This document shows positions 128-50,855 of a stretch of DNA of 50,855 nt, one piece after another. Source of the stretch: a virus; the IMG/VR virus record IMGVR_UViG_3300033417_000013, positions 1 through 50,855 of that record. One strand, 5' to 3'. The position numbers and the translations under genes were made by a program. Position 1 is the stretch's first letter. Each line of letters opens with the position of its first letter. Below the pieces are notes generated by a model that saw only the letters and a list, made by a program, of their open reading frames with translations, did not search any database and was not told where the DNA came from.

Positions 128-306
128 TTGTGACTGTACGTTTCAGCCCATAACGGATTGCCAGTCAGGATGGCGATGTCACCGCTACCGTCGTCGGTCA
201 CGGTCACGCCGCTGGCTTCGAGGCCGGACTTCAGCCCGCGTTCCATCAAGCCGTAACCCGCCGCACCGTTGTACTCATTGGTGGCAAAGAGTGATATGCT
301 AGGCAC
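1..306 (-). CDS. Glycosyltransferase (GT-B/GT4-like), 5' part of the junction-spanning gene (GTG at 306, continues 50728..50066)
   Basis: The frame of ORF 50066..50836 stays open 66 codons upstream through the junction to GTG 306. A TGA lies 9 codons further up. The GTG overlaps the TAG of gene 299..529. Confidence 0.7.
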   Translation of the reverse strand, partial: MPSISLFATNEYNGAAGYGLMERGLKSGLEASGVTVTDDGSGDIAILTGNPLWAETYSHKRLWAYTMAESTKVAPEWVDCLNLCYERVLVPCPPLVEIFQGS

Positions 307-529: not shown

Positions 530-539
530 ACTCCATAAT

Positions 540-560
540 AGGGGGCAACCTTCACCCCCT
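540..560 (-). terminator. Hairpin after the major capsid gene (possible attenuator or RNA stabiliser)
   Basis: AGGGGG, 9 nt, CCCCCT between the capsid stop (587) and the next start. No long U-run. Confidence 0.3.
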
Positions 561-586
561 TATTATATCACGTTGTGACTCTCAGT

Positions 587-3313: not shown

Positions 3314-4321
3314 TTAATTCCGCGTTAGATCAACATCCAGCAGTGCCAGCGCCCCCAGCAGCAGGAATAAGAAGCTGCGTTCACTGGCAGGTGTGGCATA
3401 CGGCGGCGGTTCGTTGGCCGCGATCATCGCCCGTAGTTCCTCAGTGACTTCCGCCGTAGGCCGGGTGTTGCTTCGTAAATGACAAAGATCATGCGGATGT
3501 GCCGGATAGCTTGGCACACTATCCAACGCATACGGACTACCCGCCGCCAGATCATCGCAGATGTCAATCTCAGGATGCGACGGCGACAACACCCAATCAA
3601 TCGTCTCCACATATGGGTTGGCTTTGGCGCTGACGATCATCGCCCGCCCATGCGCGGCGGTAATCTCGGTACGGGCCAGACGGCGCGCATCGTAGCTGCC
3701 ATCGTTTCCATACGGGGTGCGGGTTCGTATCTTCGCCCGGCCTGGAACCATAAACTGCTCCAACCGCTTGGCGATATTTACTGCACTGTCGCCCCGGCGG
3801 ATACCTTCTGCCAATAGTTGATCCACCTGCACCCTGGCTCGCACATTCACCTGCCAGATGCGATCACTCAAGATATAACCGTTGGGATCAACGAAGGTAT
3901 GCGCCGTGTCGTAATCCGCCAGCGGGTTGGGGTGGAATTGTTCGCTCACCATGCCCTGCCCCGACAGCAGCCAACGGTACACATCCTCCGGCACATTGCG
4001 TTGCAGCCAGACATGATGGCTATGTACCACCGCGCGGGTCACGCTGGCAATCCCGGCGTTCAGCAACCGCGCATAGGGTGACAGTGCCGTGACACCATCC
4101 TGTGCGAAGGCATTACGTCCAACGACGTACTCAGCGCTGATCATGCGCCCAATGCGTTCCTGCACAGGGGTCAGGTTGTCAGCGGGGATTGTGCCATCTA
4201 GCCTTGCCGCCGACAACAGCACCATGCGGGCTTGCTGGGCGGTGGCGGTACGCAGGGCGCGAAAGTCACGCTTGAACGCCCGTTGAGCAGCGGCTAAAGC
4301 GCGGGGGGCCTGGATGGGCAT
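3314..4321 (-). CDS. Head morphogenesis protein, Mu F / SPP1 gp7-like
   Basis: Motifs RLARTEITAAHGRA, DICDDL and YPAHPHDLCHL. TAATG overlap with the portal stop. Confidence 0.85.
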   Translation of the reverse strand: MPIQAPRALAAAQRAFKRDFRALRTATAQQARMVLLSAARLDGTIPADNLTPVQERIGRMISAEYVVGRNAFAQDGVTALSPYARLLNAGIASVTRAVVHSHHVWLQRNVPEDVYRWLLSGQGMVSEQFHPNPLADYDTAHTFVDPNGYILSDRIWQVNVRARVQVDQLLAEGIRRGDSAVNIAKRLEQFMVPGRAKIRTRTPYGNDGSYDARRLARTEITAAHGRAMIVSAKANPYVETIDWVLSPSHPEIDICDDLAAGSPYALDSVPSYPAHPHDLCHLRSNTRPTAEVTEELRAMIAANEPPPYATPASERSFLFLLLGALALLDVDLTRN

Positions 4322-5805
4322 TAGGCCGCATTCGGCACAGGTTCATCGTCACCCGTGTCCGGTTGCGCTTCCAACCGTTGCAGCGTCATCTCTAGCTGCT
4401 TTTCCTGTTCATCGTCGGCTTCCTCTTGCGCCGCTGCGACCTCCGCCGCCGGGTCTTCGATACCCAAGTCCAGCACCCGCAGTTCAGTCTCACGGGTCAG
4501 TAGGTTATCCAGTGAGGCTTGCGCGACCTTCTTGACCAGGATTTCATCGTCGCTTGGTGTGACTTCCGGCCATGTCAGTGTCATATCCTCGACCACCGGC
4601 AGGAACTCAAACAATGCGACACTCGCATACCACACTTGGAACAGATCACGCAGTGGCCCAGCCAGCGCCTTGCGCCAGCGGTCAATCAGGCGCACAAACG
4701 CCGGTAGCTGCGCTTCGAATGAGGCCATGCTGCTGGCAATCGCCCCGCCCCACACGCCTTCCGGGATGCCGGTATGTTCCAGCATCAAGTAGAACAGCGT
4801 CTTGAGCATGGCCTTGCTATCAGCAGCGAATGGCCCCGGCGCGGCAAACTCAAAGGTTGCTGGGGCTTTCAGCCAGAGCATGGTCAGTTCGGCAAAGTCT
4901 ACCACCGTTTCGGTTTGCGGGTTGCCTTCTTTGTCGGTGTAGTTGTCAGTGCGGGTGGCATTGACGCGACGATCATTCTCCGGGTTGTCGCTGGTGGAGA
5001 CCGGAATCGGCCTGCCCATAACCTCAACGCCATCCAGCGATTTATTCAGCAGGTCATCGTAACGGATGAACAAATGCAGCAAGCCCTCATACACCGGATG
5101 ACCGTGTGTCTCGTTGGCCTCCCGTTCGTTGTGATAGGGTACAACCGGCATTAAGCCGGTGGGGTTGGCGAATTCAAATATCTGGTCAGGTCGGGAAGCG
5201 CGTAAGGCATCCCCCATCTTAATAATCACCGTGCGGCCATCGGTGCGATATTCATCTACAATCGTCACCGTTTCCAGCTTGGTCGTGATCCTGTAGGCCA
5301 GCACCGTGCTGTAATCGAACGGGTCAGTCACCACTTCCACCGTATCCGGCGGGGCCATGCTCAGGCTGCCATCGGCGTTGACGATCAGGTAGCTATCACC
5401 CAGCGCCAGCCCATCGGTGTACCACGTCAGCAGCGTGTCCAGTTCATCCATGACAAACTGTGACAGGCGTTCGTTGGCGACCTCGTTGGTGGTATCAACA
5501 TCTACGCCACTGCCCAACACCCAGCTCGCCAGGATATTGAGGATGGGACGGGCGAATGCGCCGCCGAGTTCCGTCCCATCCTCTTTGCCCCGGCGGAAGC
5601 GCGACCACCAGGCGTAATCGACCTGGGTGCGGTCTACAGTGGTGCGATACGGGATATGGCGCGTGTAGGGTGACGTGGTGCGACCCACGATCTCGGAGAC
5701 CACCGCGCCTTCTTTGTGGCGACCATTCGTGCCATTGGCGATCACGGTATCCACTTCCACCACCGCTTCAGCAACGCTTGCCGGTGCTTGCTTTGCTTTC
5801 GTCAT
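4321..5805 (-). CDS. Portal protein
   Basis: 494 aa between terL and the Mu F-like gene. The start shares 1 nt with the terL stop. Confidence 0.85.
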   Translation of the reverse strand: MTKAKQAPASVAEAVVEVDTVIANGTNGRHKEGAVVSEIVGRTTSPYTRHIPYRTTVDRTQVDYAWWSRFRRGKEDGTELGGAFARPILNILASWVLGSGVDVDTTNEVANERLSQFVMDELDTLLTWYTDGLALGDSYLIVNADGSLSMAPPDTVEVVTDPFDYSTVLAYRITTKLETVTIVDEYRTDGRTVIIKMGDALRASRPDQIFEFANPTGLMPVVPYHNEREANETHGHPVYEGLLHLFIRYDDLLNKSLDGVEVMGRPIPVSTSDNPENDRRVNATRTDNYTDKEGNPQTETVVDFAELTMLWLKAPATFEFAAPGPFAADSKAMLKTLFYLMLEHTGIPEGVWGGAIASSMASFEAQLPAFVRLIDRWRKALAGPLRDLFQVWYASVALFEFLPVVEDMTLTWPEVTPSDDEILVKKVAQASLDNLLTRETELRVLDLGIEDPAAEVAAAQEEADDEQEKQLEMTLQRLEAQPDTGDDEPVPNAA

Positions 5806-7400
5806 CAGCTTAGTGGCCCCCGTCGCTTGGGTCGTGAGGGTGTCCGGTACAGGCCGGGTGCTGATGTTTTGGTCACGCCTGTCAATTGGTAGCGCAGCAT
5901 CGCATAGCGGGCTAATAACCGGGCAATCACCGTATCGTCCTGCGCTTCATCATCACTACCGCCTTTACCTTCCGCGCCATACGTCCACAGATTGGTCGCT
6001 GTTTGTTTCTTGACGAAGATATTCATTTCATGTTTCGCGTAACTGACATCCAGCAACCGCATTCCCAACTGCTGATAGGCTTCCTTGAAGCTGGTCACAA
6101 GGTTGTGCTTTTCAGGTAGGGTCATCGTAAATGGTTCCACAGTCGTCTTCAGGCTTGCGGTACTAAGTTCTCGGATCAGGGATTCAACATTATCCGACAT
6201 TGAATTCTTTTCCGGCACAATGAAGCCCACCTGCCAGAACTGGCAAGCCTTAATCACTTCCGCCCGGATGCTTTCGTACAGCATATGCCGCCAGCGATCC
6301 AGGTAGACTTCCTCAAAAGTGTCCGGGTCGAAGATGCACAGCGACGTGTAGTTTTCATCCTGCCCCCAATCCAGTCCGGCGACATACACCCGGTTTGGCT
6401 TCGGCTTATCCTGATACGGCCCACCCATCACCAGATGCACATTCGGAAACGCACTGTTACCGGAAGTCAGAAAGCAGGTCTCAACATCTTCGGGGTATTC
6501 CTGCGTGAACAGCACGTCCATTTCCGGCTCGCGCATCTTACGCCGTCGCCACTTGATTTGCGCCGGGGTCAGATTGTGCTTTTCAACCAGCGCCGCTTCT
6601 TCATCGGTGTAGGCCAGCGTTTCGCCCGGTTCCAGCGCAGCCTGGTATTCGTCAAACATAAACCAGGGGTAGAAGTGCAGCGCGAAATCGCTCTCGCCCG
6701 CCAGCACTTTTTGCACTTCCTCATAGAACATGCCCTGAGCGCCGTTGGGGGTGCTTTCCAGAAACACCCACGCATCCGGCGAAACGGCCTGCAATGCGCC
6801 CGACATGATACTTCTGGCATCCGTCCAAAAGGCGACTTCAGACGCATGGATACCACCGCCGAACGTACCGCCGCGCCCACCAACCTTTGACCCGGCAGTC
6901 TTGATGGTGGTGCGACTGCCATTATCATAGGTGGTCTGACCGTAATTGTTATATTCGCGCTGGACACCCAACGGCCTCGGCAACTCATCGTAGAAAATGC
7001 GGGCCATTTCGCGTAGAAACTGCGTGGTAGTCTCATCATGCGCCATTGACATGAAACGCGAGGCTTGACGCATCGACTGCCAGAAGTTGAACGCCTGAAT
7101 GACGGTGGTGAAGCCGAAACGCCGCGCCTTAAGAATCAGGTGCTTGGTGTTGCCGGATGCGATCACCGTCTCGTAAAAATGGCGCTGCACATTGTTCAGG
7201 ATAAACGGCACAAACTGGTCGTACTTATCTTGAATGACCAGATACTGCTCGCAGAAGTCGGGGAAATCGAGGTCTTGCCACCCCACCCCACCGCCGGGGC
7301 CGGTGCTAGTCTGCGTCGTTAAGCTGGTGCTGACGTACTGTACCAGTGTATCGAATGAAGTCTGCTTGGATTGCGGTAAGAGCGTCTCGGTCACTGACAT
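5805..7400 (-). CDS. terL: Terminase large subunit
   Basis: ATPase motif HLILKARRFGFTTV, C-terminal nuclease-like VYVAGLDWGQDE, 531-535 aa. GTG 7412 is an alternative start. Confidence 0.9.
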   Translation of the reverse strand: MSVTETLLPQSKQTSFDTLVQYVSTSLTTQTSTGPGGGVGWQDLDFPDFCEQYLVIQDKYDQFVPFILNNVQRHFYETVIASGNTKHLILKARRFGFTTVIQAFNFWQSMRQASRFMSMAHDETTTQFLREMARIFYDELPRPLGVQREYNNYGQTTYDNGSRTTIKTAGSKVGGRGGTFGGGIHASEVAFWTDARSIMSGALQAVSPDAWVFLESTPNGAQGMFYEEVQKVLAGESDFALHFYPWFMFDEYQAALEPGETLAYTDEEAALVEKHNLTPAQIKWRRRKMREPEMDVLFTQEYPEDVETCFLTSGNSAFPNVHLVMGGPYQDKPKPNRVYVAGLDWGQDENYTSLCIFDPDTFEEVYLDRWRHMLYESIRAEVIKACQFWQVGFIVPEKNSMSDNVESLIRELSTASLKTTVEPFTMTLPEKHNLVTSFKEAYQQLGMRLLDVSYAKHEMNIFVKKQTATNLWTYGAEGKGGSDDEAQDDTVIARLLARYAMLRYQLTGVTKTSAPGLYRTPSRPKRRGPLS

Positions 7401-7947
7401 TTTGCCGTACACTTTCCAACAAGGCGGCCATCAACAACATTGCCTGATCCACCGGGATCATCTGTTCCATCTCAATGCGCCGCTTGCGCTCATCAACGAC
7501 CAACTTACGCCGCTGTTCCATCGCTTTGTGCAGCGTGTCCCATTTGCTCACATAGGACGCGCCCGCTTCGATTGTCTCGAAGATGTAGATCAGCAGTTCC
7601 GGCTTTTCGTCTTTGGGCGCTTTCTTGTATTCAACGATCTGCGCTTGCAACTGTTCCCATAATTCGGGGCTGCTGTAATCGCCAAGCGATTCGATTAACT
7701 GTGCGGCGTAGGTATCCACCAACGCGATCTGATTATCCAGCGCCAGTTTGTCGGTATCGGCTGCGAAATCGTTATAGGTATCGAGCAAGCCAACCGGGAT
7801 GTATTTACTGTACCCCTTGCCTTGATAGTTCGGGGCTGCAATGCCCTTGAGGGACTTACCGCCGTGAATATGGCATACCTCACCACCATGCACCGCGTCT
7901 TTTTTACAGCGTTCACCGCTGCGTTTGGACTTTGCTTTACACTGCAT
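7306..7947 (-). CDS. terS: Terminase small subunit (putative)
   Basis: N-terminal Cys/His motif CKAKSKRSGERCKKDAVHGGEVCHIHGG plus a helical C-terminus, immediately upstream of terL. Confidence 0.6.
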   Translation of the reverse strand: MQCKAKSKRSGERCKKDAVHGGEVCHIHGGKSLKGIAAPNYQGKGYSKYIPVGLLDTYNDFAADTDKLALDNQIALVDTYAAQLIESLGDYSSPELWEQLQAQIVEYKKAPKDEKPELLIYIFETIEAGASYVSKWDTLHKAMEQRRKLVVDERKRRIEMEQMIPVDQAMLLMAALLESVRQNVSDRDALTAIQADFIRYTGTVRQHQLNDAD

Positions 7948-8697: not shown

Positions 8698-9195
8698 TTA
8701 AATCACCCACTCGAAGAAATGTTCAATACGGCAAGATATAACCTCGGCTTGCTCATCGCCATATTTCTTCTTAAGCCAAACATCAGGAAGTTTTGACCCT
8801 TTTGATGTGTTACAGTAGGAGCATAAAGGAAGGATATTTGTACACTTATGTCCAACTGGATCAACCTTTAATGGAATCCAATGGTCGGCCTGTAACTTTC
8901 CGTCTACAGTCCTCTTCTTGCATACAGCGCATTGACCATTGAAGTAAAAATAAGCCAACATCCAATCAGTAGCTAAATAGTCATCACATAAGCGTCTGGT
9001 GGATATGGTTCTCTTACTACGTTTTAAGCGATTACATTCCTTGCATGGTGAGGTTAAATAAGAGCGCTTTAACTTCCTTTTGCCACCTTTTACATGATAC
9101 ACATTTTGACGAATAAAGTAATCATCTGTACTCGGCAAAAGCGTCTTGCACATCAAGCATTGTTTCATTTCGTGATTTTGGATAGAATCATTCAT
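8698..9195 (-). CDS. HNH homing endonuclease (copy B)
   Basis: CAVCKKR...LQADHWIPL...NILPLCSYCNTSKG. N-terminal CLMCK...CKECN zinc module. AT-rich relative to neighbours. Confidence 0.85.
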   Translation of the reverse strand: MNDSIQNHEMKQCLMCKTLLPSTDDYFIRQNVYHVKGGKRKLKRSYLTSPCKECNRLKRSKRTISTRRLCDDYLATDWMLAYFYFNGQCAVCKKRTVDGKLQADHWIPLKVDPVGHKCTNILPLCSYCNTSKGSKLPDVWLKKKYGDEQAEVISCRIEHFFEWVI

Positions 9196-12943: not shown

Positions 12944-13312
12944 ATGAACACAAAACCACTTCCGGGAGTAAACGACCCCGACCCAAACCGCTGTCACTGG
13001 TGCAATGGCGAATTGGCGATCATCCATTACCACTACGACCCGCCTTACAATGTCGTTGTCGGCTACAGTGATCGTTACGACTGCCATTGCATCAACGAGC
13101 AATGCGATGCGTTCATGGCAACCGGCGCGGTTACGACCTACCCACAGACAGCACAGCGTGTCGTTGACAGCCGCAAGAAGAAACGGGGCAGCAACAAGCC
13201 CGTGATCGACAGCTACGCCTTGTCCTACTTCCAGATCGACCAAGACGCACCAGTCACCACACTGGACATCGAACGGGCGCGGGCTGCAATCGGGCAGGGC
13301 GGAAATTCATAA
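12944..13312 (+). CDS. Zn-binding hypothetical protein (122 aa)
   Basis: AAGGAG 8 nt upstream. CHWCNG...CHCINEQC. Confidence 0.7.
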   Translation: MNTKPLPGVNDPDPNRCHWCNGELAIIHYHYDPPYNVVVGYSDRYDCHCINEQCDAFMATGAVTTYPQTAQRVVDSRKKKRGSNKPVIDSYALSYFQIDQDAPVTTLDIERARAAIGQGGNS

Positions 13313-25529: not shown

Positions 25530-25873
25530 TGTATGGAGTGATCGGTATCCGTCTGATTATCGGTTCCAGTCGCTGGCCGAGTCGCCCTAAGCCATGGGTT
25601 GCTCGGCTTACCAGACTAGATGATCATTACGGGTTTGCTAGAGAGTTCATCCGAGCCACCTACGATTACACCCACGCCAGCAAAGCTAACGGCAAAGGTA
25701 CACGTATGTATTTCGCCATGCCGCCGGGGGTGTATGAGGGTTGTTGGCCTATCTCGTGGAAGCATGAACACAGAGGTTTTTGGCAAGTGGATGAACAAGG
25801 CAATATCTACGACATCACCAGAGAGGAGGTAATCGAATGCCTGAAAAAGTCGGTCTCGGAATCAGTGTCCTAG
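25529..25873 (+). CDS. Hypothetical protein (114 aa)
   Basis: TGATG coupling. Confidence 0.6.
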   Translation: MYGVIGIRLIIGSSRWPSRPKPWVARLTRLDDHYGFAREFIRATYDYTHASKANGKGTRMYFAMPPGVYEGCWPISWKHEHRGFWQVDEQGNIYDITREEVIECLKKSVSESVS

Positions 25874-27072
25874 AAGCCGCACAGCAGCGCATTACGGAGA
25901 TATTCGACATCTTCCCGCGCATTCTGGTGTCTTTCAGCGGCGGCAAAGACAGCACGGTCATGTTACATCTGGTCATGCAGGAAGCGCAGCGGCGCAACCG
26001 TAAGGCGGGTGTGCTGTGCGTTGACCTCGAAGGACAGTACAAGCTCACCATAGATCATATCCAGCGGTGTTACGACCTGTACGCTGACCACATTGAACCG
26101 TACTGGATATGTTTACCGATTGCCTTGCGTAATGCCGTGTCCAACTACGAGCCAAAATGGACATGCTGGGAACCGGGGCGCGAAAATGACTGGATACGCC
26201 AACCGCCGGACATGGCGATTACCGATCATGAGACACTTCCGTTTTATCGCTACTATCAGGGGCGAGCGATGGAGTTTGAGGAATTTGTACCGAAGTTTGG
26301 GGATTGGTACGCACAGGGCAAACTCACTGCCACGTTCGTGGGTATCCGCACGGGCGAAAGTCTTAACCGCTGGCGCACAATCGCGGGACACGGACAAAAG
26401 TTCGAGGGGCGCAATTGGACAAACCATGTCATGAAAAGCACCTGGAATGTTTACCCGATTTACGACTGGCACACGAATGACATTTGGACGTACCACGCCA
26501 AAACGAACCTGCCCTACAACCGACTGTATGACCGGATGCACCAGGCCGGGTTATCTGTTCACCAGATGCGAATCTGCCAACCCTATGGTGACGACCAGCG
26601 TAAGGGGTTGTGGCTGTTCCAGATTATCGAACCGGAGACATGGGCGCGGATTGTGGCACGGGTGAACGGCGCTAATCAGGGCGCGTTGTATGCCAACGAG
26701 TCCGGCAACATTCTAGGCCGTATCAAGATCGTCAAACCAGAAGGTCATACATGGGAATCGTTTGCTCACCTACTGCTGAACAGTATGCCGGAGAAAACCA
26801 GCGAACACTACAAGAATAAAATCGCCACATTCATCGCATGGTATCGTGACTTGGGGTATCCCGATGGTATCCCGGATAAGATGCCATCCGACCTCGAAGC
26901 GGCACGGCAAGCACCAAGCTGGCGGCGTATTTGCAAGACGCTCCTGCGTAATGACTACTGGTGCAAGGGATTGGGTTTCTCACAGCAGACAGGAACCGCA
27001 CACACACAATACAAGCAACTCATGGCGAAACGGAGGAACGAATGGGGTATCTTTCCGCTCTCAACCGACTGA
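25837..27072 (+). CDS. PAPS-reductase-like PP-loop protein with long C-terminal extension (IbrA/YbdN-like)
   Basis: PP-loop VSFSGGKDSTVM. 411 aa. GAGGAGG upstream. Paired with the ParB-like gene. Confidence 0.8.
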   Translation: MPEKVGLGISVLEAAQQRITEIFDIFPRILVSFSGGKDSTVMLHLVMQEAQRRNRKAGVLCVDLEGQYKLTIDHIQRCYDLYADHIEPYWICLPIALRNAVSNYEPKWTCWEPGRENDWIRQPPDMAITDHETLPFYRYYQGRAMEFEEFVPKFGDWYAQGKLTATFVGIRTGESLNRWRTIAGHGQKFEGRNWTNHVMKSTWNVYPIYDWHTNDIWTYHAKTNLPYNRLYDRMHQAGLSVHQMRICQPYGDDQRKGLWLFQIIEPETWARIVARVNGANQGALYANESGNILGRIKIVKPEGHTWESFAHLLLNSMPEKTSEHYKNKIATFIAWYRDLGYPDGIPDKMPSDLEAARQAPSWRRICKTLLRNDYWCKGLGFSQQTGTAHTQYKQLMAKRRNEWGIFPLSTD

Positions 27073-27671
27073 TAGACGAATTACAGCAACTTGATGACTG
27101 CGAACGCATTGAGGCGATTAATCAGGCAAAGCTGGCATTGCACGAAGTGTCGCCTATGCGTGATGAACCTGTAGACTGCGTACTGTGGGTGCTGGCGGAT
27201 ACCGTGCAAGCCAATGACTACAATCCAAATGTTGTAGCCCCGCCGGAAATGAAGTTATTGAAACACAGTATCGAGGCCGATGGTTTCACGCAGCCGATTG
27301 TCACATATCCAATTAACGGACACCGTGAGGTGATTGATGGTTTTCACCGCAATCGCGTTGGCAAAGAGGTCAAGGCGATCAAAAAACGGTTGCGCGGGTA
27401 TCTGCCGGTAACAACCATCCGGGCAGATCGTGAGGATCGTGAGAACCGGATTGCATCGACTATCCGCCACAATCGGGCACGGGGCAAACATACGGTGGAT
27501 AACATGTCTGAGATCGTGGTGGAACTATCCCGCCGTAACTGGACAGATGCGAAAATCGCGCGGGAACTTGGCATGGAATCCGATGAAGTTCTCAGGCTCA
27601 AACAGATCAGCGGCCTGGCTGAATTATTCGCAGACCGTGAATTTTCCCAAGCGTGGGAGATAGCACAATGA
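27042..27671 (+). CDS. ParB/Srx-like nuclease-domain protein (IbrB/YbdM-like)
   Basis: VIDGFHRNRVG and RHNRARGKH motifs. GGAGG 5 nt before ATG 27042. Overlaps the 3' end of the upstream gene. Confidence 0.75.
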   Translation: MGYLSALNRLIDELQQLDDCERIEAINQAKLALHEVSPMRDEPVDCVLWVLADTVQANDYNPNVVAPPEMKLLKHSIEADGFTQPIVTYPINGHREVIDGFHRNRVGKEVKAIKKRLRGYLPVTTIRADREDRENRIASTIRHNRARGKHTVDNMSEIVVELSRRNWTDAKIARELGMESDEVLRLKQISGLAELFADREFSQAWEIAQ

Positions 27672-28228: not shown

Positions 28229-28279
28229 ACCCCACACACGCAGCCCTGGCAGGGGCATATCAGGAGCAACGACATGAAC
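28222..28279 (+). repeat. Repeated gene-boundary element, copy A
   Basis: CAGCTAGACCCCACACACGCAGCC-hairpin-TATCAGGAGnAACGACATGAAC. Confidence 0.8.
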
Positions 28280-28666
28280 AGCACAGACCACAGCAAATTC
28301 AATGACATCTTCGGTGACGAACCACAGACCGGCGACGATGTCAGCCCGGAAGCGGCCCGCCGCGCCTCACAGATGAAACCCACCAAAATGGTTACGGTCA
28401 CAAGCTACGACACCGAACTCGGTTACATCACCGAAACCGTGCCAGAGAGTGATGTTGACGGCCCGCAAGGTTACAACGCACCAGTGCGGGTGTCAGTTCG
28501 GCAAGCAGCGGCCAGCGCAGGCGTAAGCGAACAGACCATCCTCGACATTCTGAATGACGAAACCCGCCGCAATGAAGTATTCCCAACTGCGGAACATATC
28601 ACCGAAGATCGTTGGGTACTGAGCATGGATGAGGTTGTTAAGTACGGGCTGAACAAGAACAGCTAG
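28274..28666 (+). CDS. Hypothetical protein with C-terminal HTH-like segment (130 aa)
   Basis: VSVRQAAASAGVSEQTILDIL. Confidence 0.65.
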   Translation: MNSTDHSKFNDIFGDEPQTGDDVSPEAARRASQMKPTKMVTVTSYDTELGYITETVPESDVDGPQGYNAPVRVSVRQAAASAGVSEQTILDILNDETRRNEVFPTAEHITEDRWVLSMDEVVKYGLNKNS

Positions 28667-32986: not shown

Positions 32987-33613
32987 CTAAGCCGCCGCTC
33001 CTGTACTCTCATTGCGTCCACTATCCACCGTCGCATCCTTCGCCCCGTCCGCATCCAACGGCTTGACGTTGCGCGGGGGCAGCGCCTCGGCTGGCGGCGG
33101 GGTGGGGTCGAATTTGCGGCGAATATCGGAGAGTATTGTCATCATGGTACTTTGTGTTTTCTGGATACTCTCTGCCAGCGCTTTGTAGGTTTCCTCACGG
33201 CCCTCACCTTTGTTTACAGCAGTCACCATGAAATTGCCTAAGCGCTCTTGCTGACTTTTCAACGCTTCAATGTTATCCGATTGCTGATCGGATTTAGCAT
33301 TGCCTAACTCCCACCGCGCCTCACGATTGCCTTCGTTTTTCGCCAGTGTTTCGAGGGTGATCTGCTGCGCACGTAGGGTAGTGTCGATATGGCCTAGCCC
33401 TTCCAACAGGCCCATGATGACCTGATGTTGGTTGGTGGCAAACTGGCTCGCCAGTTCTACGGTATGCCCATTGCCATTGCCGCTGGTAGATGGTCGCTTA
33501 ATCAACACATAGACCAACATCACCAGGACAATCCCCTGGATAACCATTGCCGCCGCAATCAGCGTCCCGCCTGGTGTAGCGAGTATTTCTCCGATGTCAA
33601 AACCTGGCGGCAT
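32987..33613 (-). CDS. N-terminal TM + coiled-coil + Pro-rich tail protein (208 aa), spanin-like architecture
   Basis: TAATG coupling to the receiver gene. TM LIAAAMVIQGIVLVMLVYVLI followed by ~120 aa of coiled coil. Confidence 0.6.
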   Translation of the reverse strand: MPPGFDIGEILATPGGTLIAAAMVIQGIVLVMLVYVLIKRPSTSGNGNGHTVELASQFATNQHQVIMGLLEGLGHIDTTLRAQQITLETLAKNEGNREARWELGNAKSDQQSDNIEALKSQQERLGNFMVTAVNKGEGREETYKALAESIQKTQSTMMTILSDIRRKFDPTPPPAEALPPRNVKPLDADGAKDATVDSGRNESTGAAA

Positions 33614-34047
33614 TAGAAAAAGCCCTCCGGTGGCGGGGTACTGGTGAGCGACCAATACAACCCTAGACTTTTGATGTTTTGCTGCAATGTCTCAGCAGTC
33701 ACCGGCTTACGGACATACACACTCGCGCCTAACCCAAAGCTGCGAATACGATCCTCCTGTTGGTCGGAATGGGTGAAGACCATCACCGGAATCAGTCGGG
33801 TTGCTGGTTGGGCTTGCATCTGTTCTAAAACCCACAGCCCATCGTGACCGTTGAGTTTAATATCAAGCATGACCAGCGTAGGCAGTCGCTTGGATTCATC
33901 CATCAGGTATTGAATCGCTGTCTTGCCGTCGCTAATATGTTCTACCGGGTTCGCAATCAACCCTTGCCGCAGTGCGCGAATGGTCAAGATAGCATCACTC
34001 TGACTATCTTCTACCAATAAGATCATCTCTAGGGCTTCACTGTTCAT
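33613..34047 (-). CDS. Single-domain response regulator receiver (CheY/Rcp1-like)
   Basis: ILLVEDSQSD (E13, D14), LVMLDIKL (D62), VMVFTHS (T92), YVRKPV (K114). 144 aa, no output domain. Confidence 0.85.
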   Translation of the reverse strand: MNSEALEMILLVEDSQSDAILTIRALRQGLIANPVEHISDGKTAIQYLMDESKRLPTLVMLDIKLNGHDGLWVLEQMQAQPATRLIPVMVFTHSDQQEDRIRSFGLGASVYVRKPVTAETLQQNIKSLGLYWSLTSTPPPEGFF

Positions 34048-35290: not shown

Positions 35291-35995
35291 ATGGAGAGTC
35301 GCATGACTACAGCACGTACTATAACAAAAAGTTGCAATGGTTGTAAGAAGGAAGTTGCATTAGTCGATTTCCACTTTCGCTCTAAGTATCGTGGTAAGAT
35401 AGTTGTTCCAACCGAACCTGCCCATGTCATAAGTGAATGCAAAACCTGTATGAGAGAACGTGGTAAAACCCAGAACCGTTTATCGCCCCATGAAACTCGA
35501 ACCGCCAGTGAGATGATGTTCATAGAGTATCTTGCATCACGTGGTGTCCCTGCCCTACCGGGCAAAGCGGTACAGTTTGCAGACGTAGACATCGTAGCCT
35601 ATGGACATATCTGGGTTGAAGTTAAATACTCAACCTTAGATTACAGTCACAACGCAAAGCGTTTTCGCTGGAGCTTCTCACCCAAGCAAGTTGAGCGCGG
35701 TGTCTATGGACACATCATTGCGCTGATCTGCGATTACGGCGAACGACAGACTTACCACCTGTTCCCCTGGGATGCGAAGTATTTCTACAATGAGGATAAT
35801 AAGCCAAAGACGGGTATCAACTTCGTACCTGGACAAATGGAAGCTGTGAAACACAAACGGCGGCATATCCTGACACAACCCGTTATGGACTTAGCGCAGG
35901 ATCGTACCAGTCTGATTAGCACTTACCTCACTCGAATTCATCATGCATTGTGTGAAGGTAAGCGCCCTGAGAGAGAGAGGCCCTTCTCTCGCTGA
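35291..35995 (+). CDS. Free-standing PD-(D/E)XK-type endonuclease with N-terminal CxxC...CxxC module
   Basis: CNGCKKEVALVDFHF...ECKTCMRERG, then FADVDIVAYGHIWVEVKYS (D..E.K). AT-rich. ATG 35303 is an alternative start. Confidence 0.6.
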   Translation: MESRMTTARTITKSCNGCKKEVALVDFHFRSKYRGKIVVPTEPAHVISECKTCMRERGKTQNRLSPHETRTASEMMFIEYLASRGVPALPGKAVQFADVDIVAYGHIWVEVKYSTLDYSHNAKRFRWSFSPKQVERGVYGHIIALICDYGERQTYHLFPWDAKYFYNEDNKPKTGINFVPGQMEAVKHKRRHILTQPVMDLAQDRTSLISTYLTRIHHALCEGKRPERERPFSR

Positions 35996-45198: not shown

Positions 45199-45816
45199 TT
45201 ACGCCACCACCGGACTGGTGAAGAACGCTTTGAACGCGCTACCCGTTGTCGGGGCTGTCCAGTCGGTATCAGTTTCGTAAATCTTCAGGCGGATATTCAT
45301 TTGGATATTGTTACGCACGACTGGAATCGCGCGTCCTTCGATTTCCTGAACCATGAATTGGTTCTGATTGCCGTCCAGTGAGAAGTTGGGCTGATTGCCC
45401 AGCTTGCACTTTTGCAGGCCCACGACGGCATAACCGCCGCCAGTGGTGCGCCCTACGCCAATCGCGCCAAAGTAAGGCAGGTCGCCATCCAGCCCTGCCT
45501 TGAAATCAACAGTCACGACACGGTTGGGGGTTGTGCCGCTGGTGTAATCGTTGGAGCCAGCGACAATACGGAAACCGTCACGATCCATCGCGCCCTGCCC
45601 CAACGTGATATTGGCCGCTACCGGGATCGCCAGCATATCGCCAATGACACCATAGCTGCGCAGGTCGTCGGTATCGCTTTCCGGCTCCACCATCAACTGC
45701 TGACCATGCACCAACGAAAATGGTGCGCCGTAAGCATCATTGTCTACATCATACGGGGCGACAATCAAGTCCCCCAACACAAAAATCACTTCACCGAAGG
45801 AAGCTACACCGGGCAT
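45199..45816 (-). CDS. Major tail (tube) protein
   Basis: 205 aa. Position upstream of the chaperone pair. Confidence 0.7.
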   Translation of the reverse strand: MPGVASFGEVIFVLGDLIVAPYDVDNDAYGAPFSLVHGQQLMVEPESDTDDLRSYGVIGDMLAIPVAANITLGQGAMDRDGFRIVAGSNDYTSGTTPNRVVTVDFKAGLDGDLPYFGAIGVGRTTGGGYAVVGLQKCKLGNQPNFSLDGNQNQFMVQEIEGRAIPVVRNNIQMNIRLKIYETDTDWTAPTTGSAFKAFFTSPVVA

Positions 45817-45834: not shown

Positions 45835-46299
45835 TTATTGTGAACGTGTGTAAAGCACAAAGCACCGCACCCAACTGGCGGATGCGTTTTGTAACCCTTC
45901 GTCAATGAATTCCGGCCCGCTGTCCACGTACTCGATATAGTTGGCCGTTTCGTCGTCACTGTTGATCGTTTTGCGATCCAGCACAATCTTGAGGCGCTGC
46001 TTCATGTTGCGGATGGTGGCGAAGCCGCTCTCATCGTACAGGTACACGCTAAAGAAGCGCCGTTCGCCCAATTGGATATTCGACTTGGTGTCCACACCAA
46101 ACGCGATCACGGCGCACGGTTCCAAATTGCCGTTGGCATCATACGCCCCGGCTGCGTCGAGATTGCTGGATGTTGCGCCGTCGTTGTTAGCGAAGTCGTC
46201 GGGGTTGATAAAGATGTTGCCGCCCGCCAGAGTATTGATCCCGCCCGCGCCGCTGTCGCCTGTGAGTAATGCCTTGATTGCTGCTTCTTGTAATGCCAT
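45835..46299 (-). CDS. Tail terminator / DUF3168-like neck protein (putative)
   Basis: 154 aa just upstream of the tail tube gene. Confidence 0.45.
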   Translation of the reverse strand: MALQEAAIKALLTGDSGAGGINTLAGGNIFINPDDFANNDGATSSNLDAAGAYDANGNLEPCAVIAFGVDTKSNIQLGERRFFSVYLYDESGFATIRNMKQRLKIVLDRKTINSDDETANYIEYVDSGPEFIDEGLQNASASWVRCFVLYTRSQ

Positions 46300-46332: not shown

Positions 46333-47142
46333 TTAGCTAACTGTTTCAAAGTATCGCTCTATTCGAGCGAGTATCTTGTTGGCAATCTCTGGATATTTCC
46401 ACTCAAGCCATTCTTTAGGATACCTATGTTGTTTACTAGCATTACATGATCTGCAAAGTGGAACAATATTATCTGGAACAGTGCCGTGACAACTCTCATC
46501 AAACAGCGGCGTCCAGTGATCCATTTGAAGTTTTTTTCCAGAACCACATACAGCACACTTCCCATTCCAGTAAGCCAACATAAAATCGTAATCAGATTTC
46601 GTGAAGGTATCAGGTAACATTCGCTTACGTGCCTCACGACGAACGTTTGATAATCTGCGATCTATTGGATTTTGTGCGTACTTTTCGCGGCGTAGTTTGT
46701 TTATACGCCTGCGATTATTACTCGCCCAATTGGACTTCTTCTCATGTACCTTTGCGTAGTTGCGCTTAGCGTATTCACTGTCATATTGTTTTTTATACTC
46801 TGCGTTTTTCTCACGCCATTCACGCGATTTCGCTAGATCATGTTCCCTGTTTTCTTGATACCACTTCCGTTTGCCAGCCCTGTATATATCTTCGTGTTCC
46901 TTGCGCCATCGGCGGTGATATTCGATGTTGCGGCGCTGCTTTTCGCCACCATATTCAGCGCGGCGACGTGCGTTGATCTCATCGGCATTTTCAGCCCACG
47001 CTTTTCTGCGTCTTGCATTGCGACATTCTCTACACTGAGTATGTAGACCATCTCGACAAGCCTTATTTGGGTGGAAGTATTCAATTGTTGCCGGTAGGAT
47101 TTGCTTACATACAGTACATGGTTTCGTGGTAGAATCAGACAT
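46333..47142 (-). CDS. HNH homing endonuclease (copy A) with Arg/Lys-rich repeat region
   Basis: CAVCGSGKKLQMDHWTPL...NIVPLCRSCNASKQ. N-terminal CTVCK...CRECRN. AT-rich. Confidence 0.85.
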   Translation of the reverse strand: MSDSTTKPCTVCKQILPATIEYFHPNKACRDGLHTQCRECRNARRRKAWAENADEINARRRAEYGGEKQRRNIEYHRRWRKEHEDIYRAGKRKWYQENREHDLAKSREWREKNAEYKKQYDSEYAKRNYAKVHEKKSNWASNNRRRINKLRREKYAQNPIDRRLSNVRREARKRMLPDTFTKSDYDFMLAYWNGKCAVCGSGKKLQMDHWTPLFDESCHGTVPDNIVPLCRSCNASKQHRYPKEWLEWKYPEIANKILARIERYFETVS

Positions 47143-47224: not shown

Positions 47225-47587
47225 TTACCTGCCACCAAGCATACGTTTATAACTGTCCCACACTTGCCCATAATGAACCTCAAGCGCAGGCCGCACGATG
47301 GCATATCTAGACGCATTACGGGTTTCTAAGAAAATCCCATAATCAAGTCCATGAGATAGCACAATCATAACGGCATCCCCGTTTTGAATGAGAAACGCAC
47401 GTCCCCATAGCGCTTGCCTTAAATTACCACTGCGGTCAGTCCAGGGGGCTTGCGATTTGGCATACGCTTCCAGCACCGCGCCCCAATGCTGCCCCAGATT
47501 GAACGAGGCTTGCTTAACCGCCTCGCCATACGCGCCAATGCGCTGCTTCATGCGCCGGTCTGTGCCGTGCCAGTTAATGGAGGTCAT
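47225..47587 (-). CDS. HK97 gp10-like neck protein
   Basis: 120 aa. PWTDRSGNLRQAL resembles the gp10-family D-TG-L-S motif. Confidence 0.55.
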   Translation of the reverse strand: MTSINWHGTDRRMKQRIGAYGEAVKQASFNLGQHWGAVLEAYAKSQAPWTDRSGNLRQALWGRAFLIQNGDAVMIVLSHGLDYGIFLETRNASRYAIVRPALEVHYGQVWDSYKRMLGGR

Positions 47588-47967
47588 TACTGGATTTGCT
47601 CCGCCCTGCTTTGTGTCTGATTGTGTACTGCCTTCTCCACATACGTCACCCGATAATTGCGCCGCGTACCTGTTGCCTGATAGCGGAACTCATCACCCTT
47701 GCGAATATCCGCATCGGCGAATCCCAGCACCAGTAGTTCGTCGCGACTGCCCTGCCCGACTTCCGTATTCGCTTCCTGTGTAGCGCTTGCTTGCCCTAAT
47801 GGTGCGATCAGGAAGTCTTGCGCGGTTTGTGCCACGCCGTCGCGGTACAGCACCACACTCACGCCGCGATGTCCAATCATGAAGCCAGGATCGCGGCTAA
47901 ATTGTGACAGCCAATCCTCAGTATCGCCGGTAGCATCCCAATCAAGATATGTGTTCAGGTTGGGCAT
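47587..47967 (-). CDS. Head-closure / head-tail adaptor protein (putative)
   Basis: 126 aa. Coupled starts and stops within the neck gene series. Confidence 0.5.
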   Translation of the reverse strand: MPNLNTYLDWDATGDTEDWLSQFSRDPGFMIGHRGVSVVLYRDGVAQTAQDFLIAPLGQASATQEANTEVGQGSRDELLVLGFADADIRKGDEFRYQATGTRRNYRVTYVEKAVHNQTQSRAEQIQ

Positions 47968-48371
47968 TATTCAATGCTCCCTGACCCAATCCGCCGCTGC
48001 CGCCCGATTTCCTCAGACGGCAGTGTACGGGTCTGGTGTGGGTAGCTGGCGATCTTCGACTTGAGGATATTGCTGTTCGTCCCCAGCGCCGCTTCCAGAT
48101 CATCGGCGTACAATTCGTACATATCCTTGATGTTGTCGCGGACTTGCTTCAACTTCTCACCCGTCGCCCCGGCGGTGTAATCGTGTAGCTTGGACGCGCT
48201 GGCAAGCAGTTGTCGCCATGACAGCGCCAGCGTCGCGTTGTGCCGTTGCAAGTCGCTGGCGGCGTTCACCATGCGATCCCAATTCCGCTGCAATTCCGAG
48301 TCACCGAAGGCCGTGTTGCTATCGCCCAGATCGGTACGCAGGTCACTCAGTTGCTGTGCGGTCAGTGCCAT
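47967..48371 (-). CDS. Head-tail connector (gp6-like), putative
   Basis: ATG 48371 overlaps the TGA of the GT2 gene (TGATG). MALTAQQLSDLRTDLGD... Confidence 0.5.
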   Translation of the reverse strand: MALTAQQLSDLRTDLGDSNTAFGDSELQRNWDRMVNAASDLQRHNATLALSWRQLLASASKLHDYTAGATGEKLKQVRDNIKDMYELYADDLEAALGTNSNILKSKIASYPHQTRTLPSEEIGRQRRIGSGSIE

Positions 48372-49003
48372 CAGTCCCACCCCCACCGTGTGCTTAAGCG
48401 TTCCATCGCTTGCTGACGCTGCTGTGGCGTAAGCTGGCTCATCATGCCTGTATCGCGTTTGTAGTGCATCAACGTCACCTGTGGCACATACACGCCCACA
48501 CAGCCCGCCGCTTCCAGTTGCAGCACCATATCCCAATCGTTGTACGGGAAGTCGTCATAACGCAGCTTATGGCCTGTATGCCACAGGAAGCCGTAGCGTG
48601 TGCCAAACTGTCCGACATTCAGCTTCGGATGCCATGCGCCGGGCTTGTGCGTTTCGTCTTGCAGCGGATAAGCCGTGTCGCCATAGGCGTACTGCTTGCG
48701 GGTGCGAACCGCCTCCCGCAGGGCATCAATTGCGCCCGGTGCATATTCGTCGTCCTGATCGCAGAAGATCACCCAACCGGTTTTGATGACATTCAAGCCA
48801 GCGTTACGGGCCGCAGATACGCCCTGATGTTCAATGCGTAGCAGGGTACAGCCTGAGACATCCAACGGGGTATCGCTGCCATCATCTACGACGATGACTG
48901 TCTTGATACATTCATTGGCCCAGGCGCTATCGACTGCCCGCTGCAAGTCGGCAGGGTTAGGATTGTACGCCGGGATGACGACGGTTACATCAGGTCGAGC
49001 CAT
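48371..49003 (-). CDS. Glycosyltransferase family 2-like
   Basis: VTVVIPAYNP...TVIVVDDGSD...FCDQDDEY. Confidence 0.85.
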   Translation of the reverse strand: MARPDVTVVIPAYNPNPADLQRAVDSAWANECIKTVIVVDDGSDTPLDVSGCTLLRIEHQGVSAARNAGLNVIKTGWVIFCDQDDEYAPGAIDALREAVRTRKQYAYGDTAYPLQDETHKPGAWHPKLNVGQFGTRYGFLWHTGHKLRYDDFPYNDWDMVLQLEAAGCVGVYVPQVTLMHYKRDTGMMSQLTPQQRQQAMERLSTRWGWD

Positions 49004-50073
49004 TGGTCAATCACCTTGTCCCACGAATAATTGTCGATGATTGCTTGCCGTGCATGTTGCCCACTGTACTGACAGGCTTCATGTGATCTCAGCAGATTCA
49101 AATAGCCAGCCATTTTTTTGTCATCATTTAAGGGTACGCTGGCTACCCCAACATGCTTCGCCAGCGCCTTATTCCCGCCGACATCCGTAATCACACACGG
49201 CAGCCCGTAGGCCATGCACTCCATGACCGCGTTACTCAGCCCTTCGGTGGTGCTGCAATTCACGGCAATGTCCCACCCCGCCAGCATGTCCAGATCATCC
49301 AAGCGCCCCGGCAGCCATACCACATCATGCAGGCCGCGTTCATCTACCATGCGCTGAATGGTGTCGCTGTAGTCACTGGGATAGCCCGCCATGATGAAGC
49401 GCAGGTTGGCGTAGTTCGGTGCAAGCCGTTCAGCCACCCGTACCAGCATCGGCTGATTCTTGATGCCATCGGGCCGGAAGTTCGCCAGCAAGCCAACAGC
49501 CACATGATGATCGTTAAGGCCCCAATAGCGCCGCGCCCGTTGGCGTAGTTCGGTTGTCAGGTCGGGGATATGTACCCCATTGGCGATGATACGCCCCTTG
49601 TGGATGTCGCCGCCGCAGTACAGCGGAATGCTATCGACCACCGCTTGCGAGTTGCCGACGATATGGGTTGCTGCCTGCATCCCAGCCATTTCGACATCTT
49701 CCGGCGTAGGGAACTGTTCTCGCACATGGCCCACACTTTCCAAGCGAATGACACGGGTATTCACGCCCGCACGTAAGGCCAGCATTGCGGTGGTTAGCCC
49801 CGTCGGATAACCGCAGCCAATCACCATATCCGGCGCTTCACCCTGGAACCACCCTTGTATCGCGTAGGGCCGGTTCATCGGGCCGAAGTTGACATGCGGC
49901 ACGTTGTTAGCCTCGATAAAGCTGCGCAGGTTGCCCGGCATGTCGCCGAAACCGTAGTAAATGCCCAGCTTGGCATCTATGCCGCGCTGCACCATCTGGT
50001 GGATCAGGTTGGCGGCTTGCTTCTCTGCCCCGCCGGGGTTGCCGGTGGCGATGACGTACAGGATTTTAGACAT
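48985..50073 (-). CDS. Glycosyltransferase, GT-B (GT4-like)
   Basis: MSKILYVIATGNPGGAEKQ N-terminus, C-terminal STTEGLSNAVMECMAYGLPCV. ATG 50073 overlaps the upstream stop by 8 nt. Confidence 0.85.
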   Translation of the reverse strand: MSKILYVIATGNPGGAEKQAANLIHQMVQRGIDAKLGIYYGFGDMPGNLRSFIEANNVPHVNFGPMNRPYAIQGWFQGEAPDMVIGCGYPTGLTTAMLALRAGVNTRVIRLESVGHVREQFPTPEDVEMAGMQAATHIVGNSQAVVDSIPLYCGGDIHKGRIIANGVHIPDLTTELRQRARRYWGLNDHHVAVGLLANFRPDGIKNQPMLVRVAERLAPNYANLRFIMAGYPSDYSDTIQRMVDERGLHDVVWLPGRLDDLDMLAGWDIAVNCSTTEGLSNAVMECMAYGLPCVITDVGGNKALAKHVGVASVPLNDDKKMAGYLNLLRSHEACQYSGQHARQAIIDNYSWDKVIDQWLDLM

Positions 50074-50855
50074 CGAGAATGTCCAGTATGTCCGCCGCCG
50101 TGCGCTTCCAGGTGAAGTTCGCCAGCAAATATTCACGGCCCTTCCAGGTATGTTCCAGCGCGGCCTCGTAGTTATTGACAATCCAGCGCAACTGTGCGTC
50201 CAGATGCGTCCGACTGATATTCACCCACAGACTGTCAGCGGCGTTAGCGTTCAACTTGCCGTCAAACTGTGACGGCCACATTTCCAGCACACTCACCGGG
50301 AAGCCCCACCGATCAACGTCCCACAGGCCCAGCCATTGCGTGGCAATCGTGGGAATACCCATCAGCACCGCCTCACGCGGGGGCAGGCCGAAGCCCTCGC
50401 CCCGGCTCGGAAACATGAACACCGCCGCCCGATTCATCAGCGCCTGATAATCCTCAGCGCTTTGTTCGCCGCGTACAATCGTCACCCCTGGCTGCGCACA
50501 GTTGGTCAGCCACATGGGGTTATCGCGGCACTTGATGACCAGTTCATAGCGGTCATCGTCGCCCAATACCCGATGCCAACTCATCATCGCATCCTGGGCA
50601 TTCTTGCGCATGTCACCCAGCGAGTAGGTCATGATGGTGCGCCTATCGCCATCCAGCGCCCGTTCGCGCCAGTCGATAGGCCGCGCATCCACCCCCAATG
50701 GCACGTAATGCACCGGCACTTCGACCCCGCTACCCTGGAAGATTTCGACCAGTGGCGGACAAGGAACCAACACGCGCTCATAGCACAGGTTCAGGCAATC
50801 GACCCATTCCGGCGCAACCTTCGTGCTTTCAGCCATCGTGTAGGCCCACAGTCGT
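50066..50855 (-). CDS. Glycosyltransferase (GT4-like), 3' part of the junction-spanning gene
   Basis: FPSRGEGFGLPPREAVLMGIPTIAT. The frame remains open beyond Met 50836 to the window end and on to 306. Confidence 0.8.
   Translation of the reverse strand, partial: RLWAYTMAESTKVAPEWVDCLNLCYERVLVPCPPLVEIFQGSGVEVPVHYVPLGVDARPIDWRERALDGDRRTIMTYSLGDMRKNAQDAMMSWHRVLGDDDRYELVIKCRDNPMWLTNCAQPGVTIVRGEQSAEDYQALMNRAAVFMFPSRGEGFGLPPREAVLMGIPTIATQWLGLWDVDRWGFPVSVLEMWPSQFDGKLNANAADSLWVNISRTHLDAQLRWIVNNYEAALEHTWKGREYLLANFTWKRTAADILDILDV
50729..50855. repeat. Terminal overlap, identical to 1..127
   Basis: Exact 127-nt duplicate of the window start. Confidence 0.95.

Follow-up and report, generated by a model that had tools for sequence, protein, structure and literature searches.

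Three coupled glycosyltransferase genes behind the capsid gene of an uncultured siphovirus: a candidate system for glycosylation of the virion head

What is the role of three glycosyltransferase genes inside the head operon of a siphovirus? The question is raised by the IMG/VR virus record IMGVR_UViG_3300033417_000013, which was analysed as one whole stretch of 50,855 nucleotides (hereafter the window). The minus strand carries, in this order, the genes of a capsid cement protein and of the major capsid protein (MCP), an open reading frame (ORF) of 74 amino acids (ORF74), three glycosyltransferase (GT) genes, and the head-tail genes. The enzymes are named by their order GT-A (family GT4), GT-B (GT4) and GT-C (GT2); the GT-B fold, a structural class, is always named as a fold. 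An earlier note, made from the letters of this DNA, had located the three genes within the virion-assembly operon and had suggested a multi-sugar glycan on virion proteins. The location was confirmed: all three genes follow one another in the late operon, behind the MCP gene and ahead of the head-tail genes. The glycan is a deduction from position, conservation and the analogy to mycobacteriophages. The favoured reading is a cytoplasmic glycosylation of the virion head, on the MCP and/or the cement protein, with GT-A as the priming and GT-B and GT-C as the extending enzymes. Its probability is estimated at about 0.55. It is based on the position in the late operon, translational coupling, the lineage-wide linkage to the capsid gene, intact catalysis, purifying selection and the enzyme repertoire.

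Three coupled glycosyltransferase genes

Bases 1-127 of the window are identical to bases 50729-50855. This exact terminal direct repeat of 127 bp indicates a circular and complete contig with a true length of 50,728 bp. GT-A, which runs across the junction, is therefore an intact gene, split only by the point of linearisation. The coordinates of all features are collected in Table 1. The stop codon of GT-A (50068-50066) and the ATG of GT-B (50073) overlap by 8 nt (ATGTCTAA), the stop of GT-B (ending at 48985) and the ATG of GT-C (49003) by 19 nt. The stop of GT-C (48373-48371) shares 1 nt with the ATG (48371) of HT1, the first head-tail gene, in the sequence TGATG. These coordinates and overlaps agree throughout with the earlier note, and its calls of two GT4-like proteins and one GT2-like protein all exceed the curated Pfam cut-offs. 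GT-A matched the families GT4-conflict with 45 bits (cut-off 26) and Glyco_trans_1_4 with 39.7 bits (cut-off 27). Scores of 64.2 bits for Glyco_trans_1_4 and 53.5 bits for Glycos_transf_1 were obtained with GT-B, and 63.2 bits for Glycos_transf_2 (PF00535, cut-off 23.3) with GT-C. Read from the sequence, the EX7E motif is EGFGLPPRE in GT-A and EGLSNAVME in GT-B; the translation of GT-C contains the motifs DDGSD and DQDD. No transmembrane segment was detected in the three proteins (maximal Kyte-Doolittle mean over 19 residues at most 1.24), nor was a flippase or a membrane glycosyltransferase partner found in the cassette or in the neighbouring genes scanned. SdgB, Gtf1 and TarM are among the PDB sequence matches of GT-B. 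In NCBIfam, GT-B and GT-C come closest to exopolysaccharide, PEP-CTERM, teichuronic-acid and Pgl-type enzymes, but all scores lie so far below the cut-off that a donor sugar is not assignable.

GT-A belongs to a family with 337 cluster representatives in a large protein collection. The closest homologue (P0001) also comprises 322 amino acids and is 80% identical. In an alignment of 100 homologues, R143, K144, E213, G214, P218 and R220 show no variation, and E221 is at least 90% conserved. The conserved positions represent the phosphate-binding basic pair (R143, K144) and the EX7E motif (E213-x7-E221); by sequence, GT-A is catalytically intact. The AlphaFold2 model, with a predicted local distance difference test (pLDDT) of 95.8 and a predicted template modelling score (pTM) of 0.93, adopts a compact GT-B fold. 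Foldseek returned 511 PDB matches at E<=1e-3, and the best 50 of the 511 are all GT-B-fold enzymes. The top match is a putative glycosyltransferase of chlorovirus NY-2A (3oy2; E 8e-16, TMq 0.79, identity 13%). Further fold neighbours are SenB, the protein O-GlcNAc transferase SdgB at fourth rank, TreT, BshA and PglA. In a viral structure library, the nearest entries, all of them glycosyltransferases, come from uncultured tailed phages, giant viruses and archaeal viruses.

The presence of SenB, TreT and BshA among the Foldseek neighbours and the unusually compact size of 322 amino acids would also suit a non-glycan role of GT-A. It could form a small-molecule product, as in these three families, or have been kept for a non-catalytic function in assembly. 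Such a role is very improbable, given the invariant catalytic residues and the tailoring glycosyltransferases, methyltransferases and sugar dehydratase encoded at the same place, which point to an oligosaccharide as product.

The position of GT-A and the variable slot behind it

No cultured phage is close to the window. The cassette gave no blastn match in 50,697 phage records, and tblastn with MCP and GT-B as queries retrieved only matches of 23-29% identity. IMG/VR, JGI metagenomes and GTDB genomes, scanned with the MCP, yielded 60 further related loci (L008-L066) beyond a first five. After removal of duplicates, 42 distinct MCPs were obtained, 33-75% identical to the MCP of the window. A GT4 of the GT-A family is encoded directly after the MCP or the cement gene in 35 of 35 non-redundant loci with sequence beyond the MCP. 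In L029 and L065 the cement gene comes after the MCP gene, and GT-A follows the cement gene. GT-A was present in every locus that extends about 1 kb or more downstream of the MCP. HT1 closes the cassette in 31 non-redundant loci, and in about two thirds of these GT-A is the only sizeable gene between MCP and HT1. The contigs of six GT-A homologues were looked up: four present the same context, and a fifth, L067, starts inside GT-A. The presence of the cassette at the same locus in relatives, a check proposed earlier, holds for GT-A in all 35 loci and for GT-B and GT-C only in some. On this genomic evidence, GT-A is a core gene of the head module.

The position of GT-A persists in a lineage with an unrecognisable MCP. 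The loci L070 (7001-14444) and L071 (7001-14402) encode a capsid protein of 339 amino acids without detectable similarity to the MCP of the window. GT-A follows the capsid gene, a second GT-A paralogue lies between the head-tail genes, and a GT-B homologue precedes the scaffold gene. All three GT4 genes lie within the head module; L070 also encodes a methyltransferase, likewise ahead of the scaffold gene. The paralogue inside the head-tail block, together with the adjacency of the cassette to head-tail genes in general, would be in accordance with a target in the neck or tail. GT-A might act on a virion protein, while GT-B and GT-C, or the whole set, would modify neck or tail proteins, e.g. 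the tail tube. Glycosylated tail tubes of mycobacteriophages are described in a published study (PMC12619734). A neck or tail target is nevertheless improbable: the C-termini of the tail-tube proteins of the relatives are short and hydrophobic (...FTSPVVA, ...FAA) instead of Ser/Thr-rich, and GT-A tracks the MCP or cement gene rather than the tube gene.

Two relatives are prophages on contigs of 273 kb and 284 kb from metagenome-assembled genomes (MAGs) of Aggregatilineales and Anaerolineae, both of the class Anaerolineae in the phylum Chloroflexota. The hosts of the lineage are, by these assignments, probably Chloroflexota. A literature search for Chloroflexota phages with capsid-adjacent glycosyltransferases found nothing relevant.

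The slot behind GT-A is variable. In phages with an MCP at least 54% identical to that of the window, and in the more distant L005, at least seven different cassette architectures are found at this place. Most loci have no gene added to GT-A. A GT2-like protein of 254 amino acids and an NAD-dependent nucleoside diphosphate (NDP)-sugar 4,6-dehydratase/epimerase follow in L002 and L004, a 242-amino-acid protein of unknown function and an S-adenosylmethionine (SAM)-dependent methyltransferase in L003, L032 and L068. L008 encodes a GT2-like protein and a methyltransferase, L033 and L005 a GT2-like protein alone, and L069 GT-B together with an FkbM-type methyltransferase. The combination of GT-B and GT-C is present in the window and in L067. 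GT-B belongs to a small subfamily confined to phages, with about 25 clusters whose identity to it is 39-84%. Beyond this subfamily the identity falls to at most 29%, and several such matches are named bacterial glycosyltransferases. Head modules with GT-B are those of L067, L069, L070, L071 and L064.

L067 represents a second strain with the same cassette of three glycosyltransferases. Ratios of non-synonymous to synonymous polymorphism (pN/pS) between the window and L067 are 0.07 for GT-A, 0.27 for GT-B and 0.14 for GT-C; all three genes are therefore maintained under purifying selection. Over 4 kb, the nucleotide identity to L067 varies from 100% in HT1, 98.5% in HT4, 97% in HT2 and 92% in GT-A down to 88% in GT-C, 81% in GT-B and 75% in HT3. 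This mosaic indicates recent recombination inside the module.

Candidate acceptors and competing targets

Ser/Thr-containing C-terminal tails of the capsid and decoration proteins had been pointed out in the earlier note as sites of interest. Such tails exist and are conserved, while that of the MCP is predicted to be ordered. The MCP matches phrog_3990 (E 2e-17). Its AlphaFold2 model (pLDDT 89) has HK97-fold capsid proteins as top Foldseek matches, those of the Mycobacterium phages Adjutor and Patience. The C-terminus was analysed in 120 cluster representatives, the best 120 of 416 MCP homologues, mostly 51-75% identical to the MCP of the window. It ends in the heptad [W/Y/F]-x-N-P-T-I-[S/T], with W in 72% (an aromatic residue in 98%), N in 92%, P in 90%, T in 90%, I in 98% and S/T in 88% of these sequences. 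The MCPs of L070 and L071, though unlike that of the window, end in I-T-W-P-[V/T]-S. The cement protein of the window itself had no direct Pfam or PHROG match. In the alignment of its family, 7 of 19 relatives match Pfam Phage_cement_2 and 5 of 19 match Phage_cement, and the top PDB profile match is a 'capsid stabilization protein' (8qsy, E 0.012). Ser-rich C-terminal tails occur across the relatives (...DASSNS, ...NDPSSS, ...LPTS). Both the MCP tail and the cement tail are plausible candidate acceptors, as judged from their sequences. The GT-A subfamilies A1 and A2 go with different styles of cement tail. The A1/A2 split largely mirrors the MCP phylogeny and is therefore not independent evidence of an enzyme-acceptor co-evolution, which is not separable from shared ancestry.

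The proposed mechanism starts with a late synthesis of GT-A, whose gene belongs to the head operon and comes shortly after a conserved hairpin behind the MCP gene. In the cytoplasm, GT-A would transfer the first sugar from a nucleotide-sugar of the host onto a head protein. The likeliest acceptors would be the C-terminal tail W-x-N-P-T-I-S of the MCP and/or the Ser-rich tail of the cement protein on the outside. Starting from this first sugar, GT-B (GT4) and GT-C (GT2) would build an oligosaccharide with three or more residues. Relatives would keep GT-A and exchange the tailoring genes, i.e. GT2-like enzymes, the NDP-sugar 4,6-dehydratase/epimerase and SAM-dependent or FkbM-type methyltransferases. 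Since the tailoring genes are swapped, each sub-lineage would show a different glycan. On the head, this glycan may serve shielding, stability or adhesion.

Mycobacteriophages O-glycosylate the C-termini of capsid and tail-tube proteins with phage-encoded glycosyltransferases, according to two reports that cite Freeman et al. 2023 (PMC12363180, PMC12619734). The enzymes are gp108-110 of Che8 and gp35-38 of Corndog (PMC12363180, PMC11256854 and PMC12619734, citing Freeman et al. 2023). Those of Corndog are encoded inside the virion structural operon (PMC4351075). In the literature found, experimental evidence for phage-encoded virion glycosylation is confined to a small number of mycobacteriophages, in which this accessory trait alters antibody recognition. 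The window shares with Che8 and Corndog a phage-encoded set of three to four soluble glycosyltransferases, with or without methyltransferases. Like in Corndog, the set is part of the structural operon, and the siphovirus head modules are comparable. The MCP of the window is structurally closest to mycobacteriophage capsids. Glycosyltransferases, methyltransferases and the sugar-nucleotide modifier of the relatives parallel the enzyme types of Corndog and Che8. The position of the cassette differs: it follows the MCP in the window, occupies the portal-protease interval in Corndog and lies at the right genome end in Che8. In addition, the core enzyme of the window is a GT4, the predicted hosts are Chloroflexota, whereas those of mycobacteriophages are Actinomycetota, and glycosylation in the window is putative.

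Chloroviruses assemble the glycans of their capsids by means of cytoplasmic glycosyltransferases that they encode themselves. To this group (PBCV-1/NY-2A) belongs 3oy2 of NY-2A, the structure that the GT-A model matches best. Chloroviruses differ in being giant viruses of eukaryotes with a double-jelly-roll capsid, their genes are not located beside the capsid gene, and the function of 3oy2 is itself putative. The bacterial enzymes SdgA/SdgB and GtfA/Gtf1 resemble GT-A and GT-B as GT4 enzymes of the GT-B fold; they act in the cytoplasm, attaching sugars to Ser residues of proteins. They differ in a size of about 500 amino acids with extra domains and in their acceptors, which are long serine-aspartate (SD) or serine-rich (SRR) repeats; the proteins of the window score far below the cut-offs of these families.

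A different target has been considered in the cell envelope. The glycosyltransferases may modify an envelope glycan of the host late in infection, e.g. a lipid-linked precursor, a wall polysaccharide or an S-layer glycan. Such a change could destroy or mask the phage receptor, sparing the progeny from capture by debris, or could block superinfection; the adjacency to the capsid gene would be historical. Prophage systems of serotype conversion of the GtrABC type likewise comprise phage-borne glycosyltransferases including a GT2. Gtr systems are located near the integrase or the attachment (att) site and are active in the prophage state. Their membrane components are a membrane-anchored GtrB-like GT2, the flippase GtrA and a membrane transferase of the GT-C fold. 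The cassette of the window has no membrane components, is not att-proximal and belongs to the late operon, and GT-C, with 210 amino acids, has no hydrophobic segment. Unlike those of Gtr systems, the genes of these soluble enzymes are translationally coupled within the late head operon and would not be expressed in a lysogen. GT-A remains beside the MCP or cement gene even where the MCP has diverged beyond recognition, which is hard to explain for a host-specific target. An envelope glycan would be in line with the nature of the best NCBIfam matches of GT-B and GT-C, far below cut-off as they are, and the variation of the cassette would fit a tracking of host glycan diversity. It is further suggested by cellular GT-A homologues, described below. 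Overall, an envelope target is considered unlikely, although it has a substantial chance. If it applied, the lineage would possess an unusual receptor-modifying enzyme, encoded in the late operon and conserved throughout.

Several observations weigh against a glycosylation of the head. Two members of the GT-A1 subfamily, P0082 and P0077, are cellular; they share 38-45% identity with the phage A1 enzymes and 51% with one another. The gene of P0082 comes after ftsK and overlaps its end, a non-phage context. P0077 is surrounded by genes for Acyl_transf_3, UbiA, FAD_binding_4, SDR, methyltransferase and GT4 proteins, by annotation an apparent cluster for the biosynthesis of a cell-envelope glycan. 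These contexts imply that the GT-A family can act on non-virion acceptors, and they are the main reason why confidence in the virion as target is only moderate. Residues 361-372 of the MCP are modelled with a pLDDT of about 89-95. An ordered tail may be conserved for structural reasons instead of as an acceptor signal, and the idea of a disordered acceptor tail on the MCP was dropped. Some relatives with GT-A lack the Thr of the tail, e.g. L060 with WGNPIIA. The outgroup mycobacteriophages MrMiyagi and DrLupo encode no glycosyltransferase after the MCP; their MCPs have an aromatic-x-x-Pro motif near the C-terminus, followed by a longer and different tail. The fixed position of GT-A could partly reflect the inheritance of head modules as blocks. 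In BLASTP comparisons of GT-A, GT-B and GT-C with the seven Che8 and Corndog proteins, nothing better than E 0.002 was obtained; this best match links GT-C to the N-terminal GT2 region of gp108 over 58 amino acids. Homology to the proven mycobacteriophage enzymes was rejected on this basis. In the lack of sequence similarity, the analogy is a functional one only.

Genome context and significance

The late genes of this siphovirus genome are arranged on the minus strand in the classic siphovirus order (Table 1). Homologues of the scaffold-like protein are encoded in all related loci, and those of the head-tail block keep the same order in the relatives. The major tail protein is followed by a chaperone, the tape measure and Dit. 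HT1 had been labelled head-tail connector. Its position is conserved, and the assignment to the head-tail region is by gene order: Pfam, PHROGs and a profile of 17 sequences against PDB gave no named family, and its relatives, scanned singly against PHROGs, matched unnamed PHROGs only.

Table 1. Positions of features in the window and of two cellular loci with GT-A homologues
Feature	Position	Strand	Remarks
GT-A, N-terminal part	128-306	-	GTG start at 306; gene runs on across the circular junction
GT-A, remainder	50066-50855	-	stop at 50068-50066; 322 amino acids in all, reconstructed across the junction
GT-B, GT4, 362 amino acids	48985-50073	-	Pfam Glyco_trans_1_4, E 2e-17
GT-C, GT2, 210 amino acids, soluble	48371-49003	-	Pfam Glycos_transf_2, E 3.7e-17
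ORF74, 74 amino acids	299-523	-	between post-MCP hairpin and GT-A; stop overlaps the GTG of GT-A by 8 nt
Post-MCP intergenic element	535-589	-	promoter-like TAGACT-16-TATAAT (with TG), GGGGG-N9-CCCCC hairpin, U-rich tail
Major capsid protein, 372 amino acids, HK97 fold	587-1705	-	C-terminus ...NSSWTNPTIS
Capsid cement/decoration protein, 139 amino acids	1719-2138	-	C-terminus ...EDASSNS; by family alignment
Scaffold-like head protein, 371 amino acids	2138-3253	-	between SPP1 gp7-like gene and cement gene; coiled-coil-like; phrog_3219 match
SPP1 gp7-like morphogenesis protein	3314-4321	-	late gene
Portal	4321-5805	-	late gene
Large terminase	5805-7412	-	late gene
HT1, 134 amino acids	47967-48371	-	opens head-tail joining block; by gene order only
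HT2	47587-47967	-	head-tail block
HT3	47225-47587	-	head-tail block
HNH/EndoVII insertion	46333-47142	-	endonuclease PHROG match, phrog_1035
HT4	45835-46299	-	head-tail block
Major tail protein	45199-45816	-	PHROG match, phrog_4971
Cellular GT-A homologue locus L074	8001-8987		
Cellular GT-A homologue locus L075	8001-8978		

The intergenic element behind the MCP gene has a promoter-like match of 10/12 positions, and its hairpin forms in the minimum free energy fold (-21.8 kcal/mol, z = -2.1). Scans of promoters and terminators gave counts not above the shuffled expectation. The element is noteworthy only because it is conserved in L001 (6758-6820), where a near-identical copy follows the MCP stop, with the ATG of GT-A directly behind. 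It possibly acts by attenuation or RNA stability and may set the ratio of MCP to enzyme. ORF74, missed by the earlier note, is translationally coupled to GT-A. It had no Pfam or PHROG match and no homologue in any related locus; by this comparison it is an insertion specific to the window.

The HNH/EndoVII gene is located between two head-tail genes and is missing there in the near-identical strain L067. Similar HNH genes occur elsewhere in the module of relatives, e.g. in L004, where one separates GT-A from the GT2-like gene. A 41%-identical paralogue was found by BLAST in the ORF 8698-9195 (-), and the ORF 35291-35995 (+) resembles the HNH/EndoVII protein only in a Cys-rich N-terminus. Judged by sequence and distribution, these genes resemble those of mobile homing endonucleases. 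One of the tail-distal genes (33613-34047, -) encodes a response-regulator receiver domain that stands alone (PF00072, E 1e-15). Several unrelated proteins share an -N-S-stop end: the scaffold (...GGNS), the cement protein (...SSNS), the ORF 12944-13312 (...GGNS) and the ORF 28274-28666 (...KNS), with the codons at 2138-2143, 1719-1724, 13307-13312 and 28661-28666. This may be due to chance or to a common stop-context sequence, AATAGCTAA.

In the early region, a phosphoadenosine phosphosulfate (PAPS)-reductase/DUF3440 protein (25837-27072, +) adjoins an ORF (26961-27671, +) with a weak ParB_N match below the cut-off. The two may form a DNA-modification or anti-defence pair. Genes of both kinds are sometimes linked to DNA modification, and phage glycosyltransferases are classically DNA-modifying enzymes (PMC12619734). 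The three glycosyltransferases might glycosylate hypermodified bases of the phage DNA before packaging and, as in T-even and other phages, evade restriction. This is extremely unlikely. Among 20 early-region ORFs, no thymidylate-synthase-like or hydroxymethylase gene was detected with Pfam (some small ORFs were outside the scan), and searches by PDB sequence and fold gave no similarity to DNA glucosyltransferases of the T4 type. DNA-modifying enzymes would be expected with the replication genes, not behind a capsid gene.

Phage-encoded glycosylation of virions is already known as a kind of system. New in the window and its relatives would be enzymes unrelated to the known ones, a GT4 core fixed beside the capsid gene, another host phylum and a hypervariable tailoring slot. 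A farther-reaching proposal can only be made tentatively and is possibly wrong: the compact GT4 would be a universal and ancient core of the head module in this large uncultured siphovirus lineage, which probably infects Chloroflexota, and would glycosylate the capsid at a dedicated C-terminal tail of the MCP and/or the cement protein. Capsid glycosylation would have originated independently of mycobacteriophages and be obligatory. The slot next to GT-A would form a hypervariable 'virion serotype' locus, comparable to an O-antigen locus, with a shuffling of tailoring glycosyltransferases, methyltransferases and sugar-nucleotide enzymes.

If glycosylation of the head holds true, capsid glycosylation has arisen independently, with unrelated enzymes, and would be a fixed core trait shared by an entire lineage of environmental phages, which has hundreds of members in metagenomes. 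The swappable tailoring cassette should then give lineage-specific virion glycans. This would raise the question of what selects the diversity of glycans on phage heads in soil and sediment: stability, adhesion to the matrix, or escape from defence or grazing. Glyco-engineering could profit from a compact candidate protein glycosyltransferase together with a short candidate acceptor tag. The known scope of protein glycosylation by phages would widen.

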